NCBI RefSeq assembly: GCF_030384885.1
Contig: NZ_CP128613.1
Length of the DNA stretch: 64,000 nt
DNA from: Escherichia coli
GTDB lineage: Bacteria; Pseudomonadota; Gammaproteobacteria; Enterobacterales; Enterobacteriaceae
Strand: one strand, 5' to 3'
In this document: positions 34,275-37,200 of the stretch, in pieces
How the letters are laid out: each line of letters begins with the position of its first letter
Position numbering within the stretch: the first letter of the stretch is position 1
Notes under the pieces: generated by a model
Database searches by the model: none
The model's input: the letters and a program-made list of their open reading frames with translations, nothing else
Told to the model about the DNA's origin: nothing
Position numbers and translations under genes: made by a program

Positions 34275-37200
34275 TTACGCCTTCTCGATGTTGACTAAGA
34301 ACGCTTTATATTCCGGCGTTTGCGAGTTTGCATCACCGACATTCGGCGTCAGAGTGTTAGCGATATAACCTTTACGCGCGACACCCTCAAAGCCCCAGTG
34401 GATTGGAATACCCACCGTTTCAACCTGCTGACCGTTTACATTCAGTGGTTTCAGACGGCGCGTTACCACAGCCACCGCGCGGATAAAGCCACGCTTGCTG
34501 GAGACAGTGACACGATCGCCATTGGCAATGCCTTTCGCCGCCGCCAGCGTTTCGCTGATTTCCACAAACTGTTCCGGCTGAGCAATTGCGTTGAGCAACG
34601 CGTGCTTGGTCCAGGTGTGGAAGTGCTCGGTCAGACGGTAGGTCGTACCCACATACGGGAACTGCTCTTTTTTACCCATCCGCAGCGCGTCTTGTTCATA
34701 CAGACGAACCACCGGGTTAGACACCACGTTCGGATGCAGCGGGTTAGTGCCCAGCGGCGTTTCAATTGGCTCGTAGTGTTCCGGGAACGGACCTTCCGCC
34801 ATTTTGTTGATGGCAAACAGGCGTCCCATCCCTTCCGGCTGCATGATAAACGGCCCGGTTGGCGTACCCGGTGCGGCATTGCCGAAGTCCGGAATATCGT
34901 TACCCGTCCACTTGCTGCCGTTCCACTGGATCAGCATCCGTTTCGGATCCCAAGGTTTACCGTTAATATCCGCCGAAGCACGGTTGTACAGCACGCGACG
35001 GTTGAGCGGCCACGCCCAGGCCCATCCCAGCGTATTCCCCAGACCGGACGGGTCGGAGTTATCGCGGTTGGCCATCTGGTTGCCCTGCTCTGTCCAGCTA
35101 CCGGTGTAGATCCAGCAAGACGATGCGGTTGTACCGTCATCACGCAGATGCGCAAAGCTACTCAGTAACTGACCTTTCTTCGCAATCAGTACGCCATTGG
35201 CGTCATAGAGATCTTCCAGCGCATAGCCGTTGTTCTCTTTTGCCACTTCGTCAGACTGCGGCTCGTGCGGCTGCTTGTAGTTCCAGCTCATCTTCATCAG
35301 CGGTTCTACACCTTTACCACCTTCGGCTTTGTACAACTCGCGAAGATGATGGTAGATACCCGCCAAAATTTCGCCGTCGTTACGCGCTTCGCCCGGCGCA
35401 TCCTGACCTTTCCAGTGCCACTGCAACCAGCGACCGGAGTTAGCGATAGAACCATCTTCTTCAGCAAAGCAGGTCGAAGGCAGACGGAATACCTCTGTCT
35501 GAATAGATGCCGGATCGACATCGTTCGACTCGCCGTGGTTCTGCCAGAAAGTAGAGGTTTCAGTCACCAGCGGATCGATAACCACCATGTACTTCAGCTT
35601 GCTCAGGCAGCTCACCACTTTGTTTTTGTCCGGGAAGGACGCAACCGGGTTAAAGCCCTGGCAGAAATAACCGGTGACTTTGCCTTCATCCATCATGTTG
35701 AAATACTTGATGACGTCGTAGGTCTGGTCCCACTTCGGCAGCCAGTCGTAGCCCCAGTTATTCTCTTTCTGTGCGGCATCGCCGTAGAAAGATTTCATCA
35801 GGCTAACGAAGAACTTCGGATAGTTGCTCCAGTAGTTCACCTGATCAGCCAGCGTCGCTTTCGGCGTGTTCGCTTCCAGATACGACTGCAAATCAACCTG
35901 TTTTTCTGACGGCAGCGTCAGATAACCCGGCAGGCTGGTAGAGAGCAGGCCTAAGTCGGTCAGGCCCTGAATGTTAGAGTGACCACGCAATGCGTTCACG
36001 CCGCCACCAGCCATACCCATGTTACCGAGCAGCAACTGGATCATCGCCATAGTACGGATGTTCTGCGCACCCACGGTGTGTTGGGTCCAGCCCAGCGCGT
36101 ACAGGAAGGTGGTTGTGCGATCCGGCGCGCTGGTGGAGGCCAGCACTTCACACACTTTCAGGAAGTCAGCTTTTGGCGTACCGCAGATGTTTTCTACTAC
36201 GTCCGGCGTGTAACGGGAAACGTGCGCTTTCAGCAAGTTCCACACACAGCGCGGATGAGTCAGTGTTTCATCGCGTTTCGCATAGCCGTTTTCATCGAAC
36301 TGATAGTTCCAGGACGACTTATCGTACTGACGTTTTTCAGCGTCGTAACCGCTGAACAGACCGTCTTCGAACACAAAATCATCACGCACCAGCAGGCTGG
36401 CGTTGGTGTAATGCTTAACGTATTCGGCGTTGATCTTGTTGTTTTCGATCAGGTAGCGCAAAACGCCAGACAGGAACGTAATGTCCGTACCGGAACGAAT
36501 AGGTGCGTAGATATCCGCCACAGAAGCGGTACGCGTAAAACGGGGATCGACAACGATCAAGGTTGCATCGTTATTGTTTTTCGCTTCCATCGCCCAGCGG
36601 AAACCGACGGGATGCGCTTCAGCAGCGTTACCGCCCATCACCATTACGACGTTAGCGTTTTTGATATCCACCCAGTGGTTGGTCATCGCACCGCGACCAA
36701 ATGTTGGAGCAAGACTTGCTACCGTTGGTCCGTGTCAGACGCGCGCCTGGTTGTCTACCGCCAGCATCCCGAGGGAGCGGGCAAATTTTTGAGTCAGCAT
36801 CCCGGTTTCGTTGCTGGCACCGGAAGCACACAGCATACCGGTAGAAAGCCAACGGTTTACCGTTACGCCCTGCTCGTTCTTTTCAATAAAGTTAGCGTCA
36901 CGGTCTGCCTTCATCAGCTTCGCAATGCGGGAGAATGCTTCTTCCCAGCTAATGCGCTGCCATTTATCAGAACCTGGCGCACGATATTCCGGGTAGCGCA
37001 GACGGTTTTCGCTGTTGACGTAATCCAGCAATCCGGCCCCTTTCGGGCACAGCGCACCACGGCTTACCGGATGATCCGGGTCACCTTCAATGTGATAAAT
37101 CGCTTCTCTGGCATTTTTCGCGCCATCACCCAGGCTATACATCAATAGCCCGCAACCTACGGAACAGTATGTACAAGTGTTACGGATCTCTTTCGCGCGT

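Follow-up and report, generated by a model that had tools for sequence, protein, structure and literature searches.

A selenocysteine recoding site and its SECIS element within fdnG of Escherichia coli

Introduction

The DNA analysed here (the window) is a 64,000-nucleotide stretch of an Escherichia coli genome, in which two neighboring minus-strand open reading frames are separated by a single TGA. The question raised by this locus is whether the TGA has destroyed one large gene, or whether it is a codon of an intact fdnG that is recoded as selenocysteine (Sec) under the direction of a selenocysteine insertion sequence (SECIS) just downstream.

Reading frame and gene product

Translation of the 1016 codons of 34275-37322 (minus strand) placed the two listed ORFs, 36735-37322 (195 aa) and 34275-36686 (803 aa), in one frame, as had been predicted. 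The sole stop inside this interval is the TGA at codon 196 (36737-36735), and the frame closes with TAA after 1015 codons. The 48 nt from the TGA to the ATG at 36686, at which the ORF lister restarted, are open in the fdnG frame, and no Shine-Dalgarno-like sequence was found before that ATG. The 48-nt gap between the listed ORFs is an artefact of the ORF-listing rules and no true gene boundary. The features of the gene are as follows, with their basis in brackets.

34275..37322, minus strand: fdnG coding sequence, formate dehydrogenase-N alpha subunit, Sec codon 196 (frame, identity to NZ_CP027579.1, 1KQF_A, TIGR01553)
36735..36737, minus strand: UGA codon 196, assigned as recoded to selenocysteine, next base C (UGAC) (sequence; X196 of 1KQF_A; same codon position in K-12 fdnG and fdoG)
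37224..37322, minus strand: codons of the Tat signal peptide MDVSRRQFFK...ALA (translation; residues 1-33 identical in 1KQF_A)

For protein searches Cys was placed at position 196 of the FdnG query. The read-through product is the 1015-aa FdnG that had been expected, and was aligned over residues 1-1015 of 1015 (2391 bits) to chain A of PDB 1KQF; entries 1KQF and 1KQG are the FdnG structure. Opposite position 196 of the window protein this chain of the solved E. coli FdnG carries a non-standard residue, X. Residues 193-199 read ARV-U-HGP and were aligned to X196-H197 of 1KQF_A, with His following the Sec/Cys position. The NCBIfam equivalog TIGR01553 was matched at 1621 bits (cut-off 814.2) over profile positions 1-1009 of 1009, in a single stretch across the site. 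Pfam domains PF04879, PF00384 and PF01568 were found, and the Tat signal and the Fe4S4, molybdopterin oxidoreductase and molybdopterin dinucleotide-binding domains expected of FdnG are all present. The TGA falls inside PF00384: profile positions 1-68 are matched before it and 97-300 after it. The SRRQFFK motif lies at residues 4-10; the Tat assignment of MDVSRRQFFK...ALA is presumed from established knowledge on FdnG. Over its entire 3048 nt the gene is 100% identical to the annotated fdnG of NZ_CP027579.1.

Three further features define the operon and promoter context.

33378..34262, minus strand: fdnH, beta subunit, 294 aa, next gene of the operon (ORF, RefSeq annotation of the relative, translation)
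32732..33385, minus strand: fdnI, gamma subunit, 217 aa, last gene of the operon (RefSeq annotation of the relative, translation)
37323..37553, minus strand: fdnG-yddG intergenic region with the fdnG promoter, regulatory sites and a GAGGA Shine-Dalgarno sequence (sequence)

The fdnG-fdnH-fdnI operon is intact and is flanked as in the K-12 fdn locus, with yddG upstream and yddM, adhP and maeA downstream. The 231-nt intergenic region has 2 differences from K-12 and includes TACCGCTATTGAGGTA and TTGATTTCGCGCAA, which we take to be putative NarL and Fnr sites. With 95-100% identity to E. coli fdnG the gene belongs to the fdn locus and not to fdoGHI; the second match in each genome, taken as fdoG, diverges more from the fdnG of the window than the fdnG matches do.

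The SECIS element

The 59 nt around the TGA were matched by Rfam SECIS_3 (RF01989) at 84.3 bits (gathering threshold 63, E=1.3e-19), over model positions 1-59 of 59 and without truncation. This was the only SECIS hit on either strand of the 64 kb. SECIS_2, the fdhF type, was rejected as the family at 28.8 bits against a threshold of 70, and SECIS_3 was preferred. The interval 36688-36737, UGACACGGACCAACGGUAGCAAGUCUUGCUCCAACAUUUGGUCGCGGUGC, encloses the entire hairpin (36692-36732), whose parts are listed below.

36682..36740, minus strand: bacterial SECIS element inside the coding sequence, SECIS_3 (RF01989) (full-length Rfam match; identical 59-mer elsewhere)
36706..36723, minus strand: upper stem-loop GGUAGCAAGUCUUGCUCC, 7 bp, bulged U (36721), apical loop GUC (36713-36715) (minimum free energy fold, Rfam consensus, RNAalifold)
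36725..36732, minus strand: 5' arm of the lower stem, CGGACCAA (minimum free energy fold; alignment pair counts)
36692..36700, minus strand: 3' arm of the lower stem, UUGGUCGCG, with a bulged G (minimum free energy fold; pair counts)

Pairing begins 5 nt past the UGA. Counted from the U of UGA, the bulged U is at +17, and the loop G and U are at +23 and +24; from the fdhF literature U17, G23 and U24 are the SECIS determinants. By analogy the upper stem-loop is presumed to be the SelB-binding module. The lower stem is without a unique register, with a G bulge in the E. coli-type sequence and a C bulge in the Rfam consensus.

The bacterial SECIS (bSECIS) consensus was taken as quoted in PMC13188914, with a loop of 3-9 nt and an upper stem of 4-16 bp, G at loop position 1 or 2 mostly followed by G or U, a distance of 16-37 nt from UGA to apical loop, and a minimum free energy (MFE) of at most −7.5 kcal/mol. 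On all four quoted counts the fdnG hairpin lies within this model, and it stands directly downstream of an in-frame UGA within a coding sequence: its 3-nt loop G-U-C is closed by A-U, its 7-bp upper stem has one bulged U, its UGA is 19 nt from the apical loop, and its MFE is −13.8 kcal/mol for the 48 nt from the TGA and −17.4 kcal/mol for the 59 nt.

The hairpin expected after the TGA folds as predicted, with support from the covariance model and covariation, not from thermodynamics. Its MFE is not significantly below that of dinucleotide shuffles (z of −1.44 for 48 nt and −0.77 for 59 nt), and 21 of 200 and 39 of 200 shuffles, respectively, folded equally well. Because of these weak z-scores, free energy was dropped as a criterion for the SECIS, and the covariance model and covariation were used instead.

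Comparative sequence analysis

A pattern fixing 15 of the 59 positions was scanned against the genomes of 100,044 species and matched at least 120 loci. Of the 120 matches listed, 119 are formate dehydrogenase alpha subunits with the frame open on both sides of the TGA, from Proteobacteria and beyond. Structure was counted in the 67 distinct FdnG-type 59-mers among the matches listed; these counts are of sequences and not of independent events. In these 67, the SECIS structure is 90.7-91.3% paired, versus at most 57% with slid partners; pairing reaches 97.7% in the upper helix and 85-86% of the cells at the 5' arm of the lower stem, and in the lower stem 15-20% of cells do not pair. Within the upper helix, the column pair 21-33 is GC in 51 sequences, AU in 8, CG in 3 and GU in 3, and the column pair 24-30 is AU in 46, CG in 17 and GC in 2. 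Among the matches listed both pairs carry compensatory changes, each of the four columns being a synonymous third codon position. The observed covariation score of the 67 59-mers was reached by none of 500 shuffles, and RNAalifold recovered the same upper helix independently from the alignment. The loop U (column 27) and the bulged U (column 20) are invariant among these 59-mers from the matches listed, and the loop G (column 26) is present in at least 90%.

Synonymous sites were compared in 22 loci among the matches listed, picked solely for flanks at least 80% identical in protein sequence. Scoring was confined to codons not covered by the search pattern, and conditioning on an identical 59-mer would have been circular. 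At conserved residues of these 22 loci the same codon is used in 98.5% of cases in SECIS codons +7 to +15, versus 51-55% in the flanks. When the test was pooled over all taxa, the signal was diluted by differences in G+C. The identical 59-mer was found in at least 21 other loci from several enterobacterial genera, and the 100-nt site around the TGA in 5425 of 5426 complete E. coli genomes.

Likeness to known selenocysteine sites

The closest known site is that of K-12 fdnG (b1474), which shares with the window the position of Sec196, the protein length of 1015 aa, the operon and promoter context, and an identical RNA over the at least 69 nt compared around the UGA. Elsewhere in the gene there are 85 nucleotide differences, none less than 50 nt from the UGA, and six amino-acid differences (window to K-12: V317A, F342L, A366E, K665Q, A666S and A933N). 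The UGA of fdnG was assigned to Sec by Berg et al. (1991), according to the passage citing that work in PMC13188914.

The proposed comparisons with fdoG and fdhF both bore out the assignment. Formate dehydrogenase-O, whose alpha subunit gene fdoG is the paralogue, also has Sec at codon 196 and an Rfam SECIS_3 element; 48 nt from the UGA are identical in the window, K-12 fdnG and K-12 fdoG. One base 4 nt upstream of the UGA differs between fdoG and the window (CGC versus CGT, an Arg codon). The fdoG gene lies in another operon (fdoGHI-fdhE) under other regulation, and fdoG-type loci in other genera encode proteins about 76-78% identical.

The fdhF SECIS (SECIS_2, RF01988) is experimentally the best-studied bacterial SECIS. 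It shares with the window the UGACACGG start, a hairpin directly 3' of the UGA, the core GGU.GCA.GUCU.GC.CC, and a common register, in which the U at +17 is bulged and G+23 and U+24 lie in the apical loop. The two elements differ in stem sequence and in loop size, with 4 nt (GGUC) in fdhF and 3 nt (GUC) in the window; the window loop becomes AGUCU if the A-U that closes it opens. The fdhF protein, formate dehydrogenase-H, is only about 25% identical to the FdnG of the window and has its Sec at codon 140.

FdnG-type elements of beta- and gammaproteobacteria (Pseudomonas, Burkholderia and others) occupy the equivalent site of the homologous gene and adopt the same fold. Their stems are richer in G+C, with compensatory changes of A-U to G-C or C-G, and, unlike the E. 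coli type, their lower stem is in the Rfam consensus register.

Selenocysteine machinery and proposed mechanism

There is no tRNA and no sel gene within the 64-kb window. The nearest candidate source, strain 2013C-4282 (NZ_CP027579.1), was ruled out as the strain of the window by an identity of 99.7-99.8%, clustered SNPs and three deletions, and the sel genes were therefore checked by proxy, in this clonal relative and by prevalence across the species. In 2013C-4282, selA, selB, selD and the tRNA-Sec gene (selC) are intact. Complete E. coli genomes carry selAB in 5425 of 5426 cases, selD in 5425 of 5426 and selC in 5424 of 5426.

Taken with the frame, the SECIS and the comparative data, the locus is almost certainly the canonical selenocysteine recoding site of E. 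coli fdnGHI, with the SECIS just downstream and the gene intact. Knowledge of Sec196 of FdnG and of its SECIS goes back to 1991, and the residue is seen in the 1KQF structure; the identification, while correct, is ordinary and of little biological weight. From published work on K-12 fdnG and on fdhF, SelB would be expected to bind and Sec to be inserted in this strain; for insertion at this UGA we infer as much since the nucleotides are identical to those of K-12 fdnG.

In the mechanism proposed, a ribosome on fdnG mRNA would arrive at UGA196 when the downstream SECIS already holds SelB, charged with GTP and Sec-tRNA(Sec), on its upper stem-loop; this binding module would include the bulged U+17 and, in the loop, G+23/U+24. 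The approaching ribosome would melt the lower stem, and SelB, at a fixed tether distance, would compete with release factor 2 for the UGA in the A site and hand over Sec-tRNA(Sec) there. Complete FdnG would result, a molybdoenzyme subunit of 1015 aa that is exported by Tat and has Sec196 at its active site. In cells lacking selenium or the sel machinery, translation would stop at codon 196 and yield an inactive 195-aa fragment.

Alternative explanations

Among the matches listed, all 59 nt are identical across enterobacterial genera in which the flanks are only 74-89% identical. This identity, together with the non-consensus register of the lower stem, could mean a second function. There is a slight chance that the enterobacterial fdnG/fdoG SECIS is constrained beyond SelB binding, by such a function or by gene conversion between fdnG and fdoG; a second function could be a balance of recoding and termination, or ribosome pacing for Tat export or cofactor assembly.

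It is very improbable that the UGA is read without selenocysteine, by a near-cognate Trp or Cys tRNA or a suppressor, with the hairpin as a generic read-through stimulator or pause site. The UGA is followed by C, and UGAC is regarded as a leaky stop context. Yet the RNA fits the SECIS covariance model and the bSECIS consensus, its loop G/U and bulged U stand at the fdhF distances from the UGA, and the identical K-12 sequence yields a crystal structure with a non-standard residue 196. Almost every E. coli genome has the sel genes, and the published assignment, as cited in PMC13188914 (Berg et al., 1991), is to Sec.

Still less probable is a true pseudogene, in which the TGA is a nonsense codon and translation gives no more than the 195-aa fragment or, from a start of its own, an 803-aa fragment. 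A naive ORF call does yield two ORFs, and the free energy of the hairpin is statistically unremarkable. Against this, the same TGA recurs in the same 100-nt context in all but one of the 5426 E. coli genomes, and the 119 formate dehydrogenase genes among the matches listed share it, the frame being open to either side. In the solved protein all 1015 residues form a single chain, non-standard at position 196; one Pfam domain spans the stop, and synonymous sites around it are strongly constrained. The ATG at 36686 lacks a preceding Shine-Dalgarno-like sequence, and RefSeq has the gene intact.

A miscalled base creating the TGA has a negligible probability, for although three private deletions relative to the closest relative make artefacts elsewhere in the window possible, fdnG is identical over 3048 nt to that of an independent complete genome and the site is identical in K-12 and thousands of other genomes.

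Annotation

The selenocysteine reading of fdnG bears on gene calling. The original prediction, that automated annotation would call this gene a pseudogene, fails for NCBI PGAP, since in RefSeq (NZ_CP027579.1) the 100%-identical gene is a single intact CDS of 3048 nt that has a protein accession and is not flagged as a pseudogene. The gene is split by naive ORF callers. According to a 2026 review, selenoprotein genes are truncated or missed by many pipelines (PMC13188914). A SECIS should be checked for before a large molybdoenzyme gene split by a TGA is called broken, and the fdnG window is a clean positive control for such checks. A SECIS within a coding region need not stand out in folding energy; covariance models and synonymous-site conservation discriminate.

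Comparison with strain 2013C-4282

The fdnG of NZ_CP027579.1 was the only record at least 99% identical to the fdnG of the window. Three deletions, at window positions 28591, 59979 and 60982, are private to the window when it is compared with 2013C-4282, and one of them removes osmC. The osmC deletion junction was absent from all complete E. coli genomes searched. GGTACC at two of the deletion junctions was considered as a restriction-site artefact and rejected; GTA/TA microhomology creates these sites, which the parental sequence lacks. It is possible that the source strain truly lost osmC and part of the Rhs/VgrG locus through private deletions.

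Reading frame, identity and annotation of fdnG

The gene fdnG, encoding the alpha subunit (FdnG) of formate dehydrogenase-N, was represented in the ORF listing by two entries:

36735-37322, minus strand, ORF of 195 aa
34275-36686, minus strand, ORF of 803 aa

Translation of 34275-37322(-) gave 1016 codons with a terminal TAA and a sole internal stop, TGA at codon 196 (36737-36735), which confirmed the original prediction of one frame split by a single TGA. The local sequence is GCGCGCGUC-UGA-CACGGACCAACGGUAGCAAGUCUUGCUCCAACAUUUGGUCGCGGUGCGAUGACC. The 48 nt from the TGA to the ATG at 36686 were open in the frame shared with both ORFs; the gap between the entries exists because the listing rule starts each ORF at its first start codon.

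Over its 3048 nt the gene showed 100% identity to fdnG as annotated in E. coli 2013C-4282 (NZ_CP027579.1), and 5425 of the 5426 complete E. coli genomes contained fdnG-homologous sequence. Protein searches were performed with Cys in place of residue 196. PDB 1KQF chain A ("formate dehydrogenase, nitrate-inducible, major subunit") aligned over 1-1015 of 1015 residues, with a non-standard residue (X) facing position 196, and the NCBIfam equivalog TIGR01553 matched in a single stretch (1621 bits, cut-off 814). In Pfam the molybdopterin oxidoreductase domain spans the stop: its profile positions 1-68 lie before the TGA, as does the Fe4S4 domain, and positions 97-300 after it, together with the dinucleotide-binding domain. 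These matches, with the SECIS_3 match described below, bear out the reading of a selenocysteine (Sec) site whose read-through gives the 1015-aa FdnG; the finding is real, its interpretation is correct, and it is already known.

The remaining genes of the operon were located as follows:

33378-34262, fdnH, directly after fdnG
32732-33385, fdnI, after fdnH

Neighbouring genes were as in the K-12 fdn locus (yddG upstream; yddM, adhP and maeA downstream). Relative to K-12, the 231-nt promoter region differed at 2 positions and fdnG at 85 nucleotides and 6 amino acids; the 50 nt on either side of the UGA were free of differences.

The identical gene was annotated by PGAP/RefSeq as a single 3048-nt CDS (WP_077627096.1) without a pseudogene flag, and 10 of 10 among the matches listed were annotated fdnG. 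The main bacterial pipeline therefore contradicts the expectation that automated annotation would mis-call fdnG as a pseudogene. The warning is still fair for naive ORF callers (PMC13188914), as the split in the ORF listing illustrates.

Family and fold of the SECIS hairpin

The region 33000-39000 was scanned against Rfam at a permissive threshold. The SECIS (the hairpin directing Sec insertion) matched the full SECIS_3 model (RF01989) at 36682-36740(-), a 59-mer, scoring 84.3 bits (gathering score 63, E=1.3e-19). The fdhF-type family, SECIS_2, was rejected at 28.8 bits only, against 70. Gathering-level Rfam matches in the whole window were limited to three, SECIS_3 and two from a group II intron. 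The range originally proposed, 36688-36737, contains the UGA and the complete hairpin.

In the minimum free energy (MFE) fold the lower stem consisted of CGGACCAA paired with UUGGUCGCG, with a bulged G, and was separated by an internal loop from the upper stem, whose 7 bp are interrupted by a bulged U and capped by a GUC loop. In numbering that begins with the U of the UGA, the bulged U is +17, the loop G +23 and the loop U +24. These are reportedly the nucleotides recognised by SelB in the fdhF studies of Hüttenhofer in 1996, Liu in 1998 and Fourmy in 2002. In the K-12 fdhF SECIS the bulged U and the loop G-U occupy these positions too, and the 48 nt from the UGA of K-12 fdnG and fdoG are identical to those of the window. 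The bSECIS model specifies a loop of 3-9 nt with an upper stem of 4-16 bp, a G within the first two loop positions, a UGA-to-loop distance of 16-37 nt and an MFE of -7.5 kcal/mol or lower (PMC13188914). The window element agreed with all 4 of these constraints (UGA-to-loop distance 19 nt, MFE -13.8 kcal/mol).

In the thermodynamic test the hairpin was not beyond chance (z -1.44 for 48 nt and -0.77 for 59 nt), 21/200 and 39/200 shuffles, respectively, folding as well. Folding energy fails to discriminate the fdnG SECIS, which is a mildly non-textbook point.

Comparative evidence

Because thermodynamics failed to set the hairpin apart from shuffles, homologues were collected by a DNA-pattern scan (GTNTGACAYGGNCCNNNNGTNGC) of a 100,044-species genome set. 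The pattern codes for V-U-H-G-P-x-V-A and puts no constraint on the loop or the 3' arm. At least 120 loci were recovered; among the matches listed, 119 of 120 were formate dehydrogenase alpha subunits with frames open on either side of the TGA (106 FdnG-type, 13 FdhF-type). The one Streptomyces match was dismissed as chance.

The FdnG-type matches listed and the window gave 67 distinct 59-mers, aligned without gaps (alignment A1); of the 59 columns, 15 are set by the search pattern, and the four covarying columns lie outside these. Pairing was 90.7% for the Rfam structure and 91.3% for the E. coli MFE structure, compared with 27-57% when the 3' partners were slid by 1-3 columns as a control, and the observed covariation score was reached by 0/500 shuffles. 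The upper helix was 97.7% paired. Pair 21-33 was GC in 51, AU in 8, CG in 3 and GU in 3, and pair 24-30 was AU in 46, CG in 17 and GC in 2, these counts being cells rather than independent evolutionary events. Since columns 21, 33, 24 and 30 fall on the third positions of codons (for Val, Ala, Ala and Leu), the compensatory changes are synonymous and lie beyond protein selection. An independent prediction by RNAalifold returned the identical upper helix, bulge and loop.

The lower stem was less well defined (85-86% paired):

36692-36732, minus strand, lower SECIS stem (A1 columns 7-16 and 41-49)

Its register differed between E. coli-type and G+C-rich sequences: the former bulge G at column 47, whereas the Rfam SECIS_3 consensus, that of the G+C-rich homologues, bulges C at column 14. 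Forcing the E. coli sequence into the Rfam register produced A-G and A-C mismatches. This departure from the Rfam consensus is likewise mildly non-textbook.

Synonymous constraint was examined in 22 distinct loci among the matches listed, chosen solely by flank protein identity of >=80% to the window, and scored at SECIS codons +7 to +15, outside the search pattern. At conserved residues the same codon was used in 98.5% (194/197) of cases, compared with 51% over 39 upstream codons and 55% over 42 downstream codons (Fisher's test, p ~2e-44, a nominal value given the relatedness of the loci). The exact 59-mer of the window occurred in at least 21 further loci, fdnG-like and fdoG-like copies alike, in Photorhabdus, Yersinia, Citrobacter, Providencia, Enterobacter, Klebsiella, Superficieibacter and E. 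albertii, with flank nucleotide identity of 74-97% (20 loci with measurable flank). In all taxa among the matches listed, Thr+4 was ACG in 95/95 and Ser+7 AGU in 62/62. The freezing of the 59-mer at the nucleotide level, across enterobacterial genera and both paralogues, is a further mildly non-textbook feature. Sequence, family membership and evolutionary constraint of the fdnG SECIS are direct observations of this analysis.

Selenocysteine machinery

No tRNA gene and no sel gene was present in the 64-kb window. In NZ_CP027579.1 the following were annotated without a pseudogene flag:

710067-711110, selD
3734666-3736057, selA
3736054-3737898, selB
3659412-3659506, tRNA-Sec

Across complete E. 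coli genomes, selAB was found in 5425/5426, selD in 5425/5426 and selC in 5424/5426. The predicted presence of this machinery elsewhere in the genome is supported by strong proxy, namely 2013C-4282 and the species-wide counts, rather than directly.

A SECIS is bound by SelB with GTP and Sec-tRNA(Sec); the lower helix opens on the approach of the ribosome, after which the A-site UGA receives Sec-tRNA(Sec) (PMC13188914). For the fdhF SECIS in vivo, recoding proceeds with an efficiency of 30-40% that varies with selenium supply, ribosomes failing Sec insertion being terminated by RF2 (PMC4513850). At fdnG, SelB-GTP-Sec-tRNA(Sec) would bind the SECIS, the lower helix would melt near the ribosome and UGA196 would receive Sec; termination instead would yield a 195-aa fragment with the Tat signal and Fe4S4 domain. 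From the identity with K-12, we infer SelB binding and Sec insertion in the window strain.

Beside yicS in NZ_CP027579.1 (3651240-3654930), ~4.5 kb from tRNA-Sec, lie a YopB/SseC-family type III translocon gene and a SycD/LcrH-family chaperone gene, and a rhuM pseudogene fragment directly adjoins tRNA-Sec, pointing to an island remnant at selC.

Comparison with strain 2013C-4282

The window was 99.7-99.8% identical to 2013C-4282 and carried three deletions relative to it. The level of identity, the SNP tracts and the deletions rule out 2013C-4282 itself as the source; these differences, and a deletion junction present in no complete E. coli genome, therefore identify the window strain as a clonal relative. 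The 160 differences were grouped in a few tracts, with none elsewhere:

12000-21000
~30000
33700-33969 (fdnH)
~41077-41082
55000-56100

There were 0 differences in fdnG and its promoter, 5 SNPs in 270 bp of fdnH, and a 6-nt insertion at 41077-41082. Such clustering suggests recombination tracts between very close relatives.

All three deletions were private with respect to 2013C-4282 and flanked by microhomology. One of 1418 bp at 28591|28592 (2013C-4282 record 1056575-1057992) takes out the 3' portion of the gene for a 3-hydroxybutyrate dehydrogenase, osmC in its entirety and the 5' portion of bdm, leaving an in-frame SDR-Bdm chimeric ORF of 125 aa at 28318-28695(+). Its junction was found in 0/5426 complete E. 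coli genomes; the deletion, with its loss of osmC, may be either a real loss or an assembly artefact. The others lie inside an Rhs core-protein gene (2504 bp) and across most of vgrG and its upstream region (1866 bp), with these junctions:

~59978-59980, Rhs deletion
~60980-60984, vgrG deletion

Their flanks share 2-3 nt (GTA, TA), incidentally making GGTACC at each junction. The Rhs/vgrG stretch was 5 kb in the window versus ~9.4 kb in other genomes among the matches listed.

Other loci in the window

An accessory 3-hydroxybutyrate/acetoacetate cluster, presumably absent from the K-12 gene order, occupied ~22339-28591, mostly on the plus strand, between ddpF and the osmC position. It comprised genes for a LysR regulator, CoA-transferase subunits A and B, thiolase, 3-hydroxyacyl-CoA dehydrogenase, GntP permease and 3-hydroxybutyrate dehydrogenase, the last being cut by the 1418-bp deletion. 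Immediately downstream of fdnI and convergent with the fdn operon was a HigB/HigA-type pair (32119-32397 and 32397-32681, plus strand), a RelE/ParE-family toxin and a HigA-family antitoxin (yddM).

A complete group II intron at 56164-57981(-) (RF01999, 93.1 bits; RF00029, 62.8 bits) carried a reverse transcriptase/maturase ORF (56241-57758) and was adjoined by an ISAs1-family transposase gene (54898-56034(-)), with the Rhs/VgrG locus nearby. Beyond yddG, on the side away from fdnG, was an intact porin gene of 366 aa (38695-39795(+), PGAP name "ompC"), where K-12 has a short yddL remnant only. It was followed (~39965-42540) by a hypothetical gene and then a leucine-rich-repeat protein gene.
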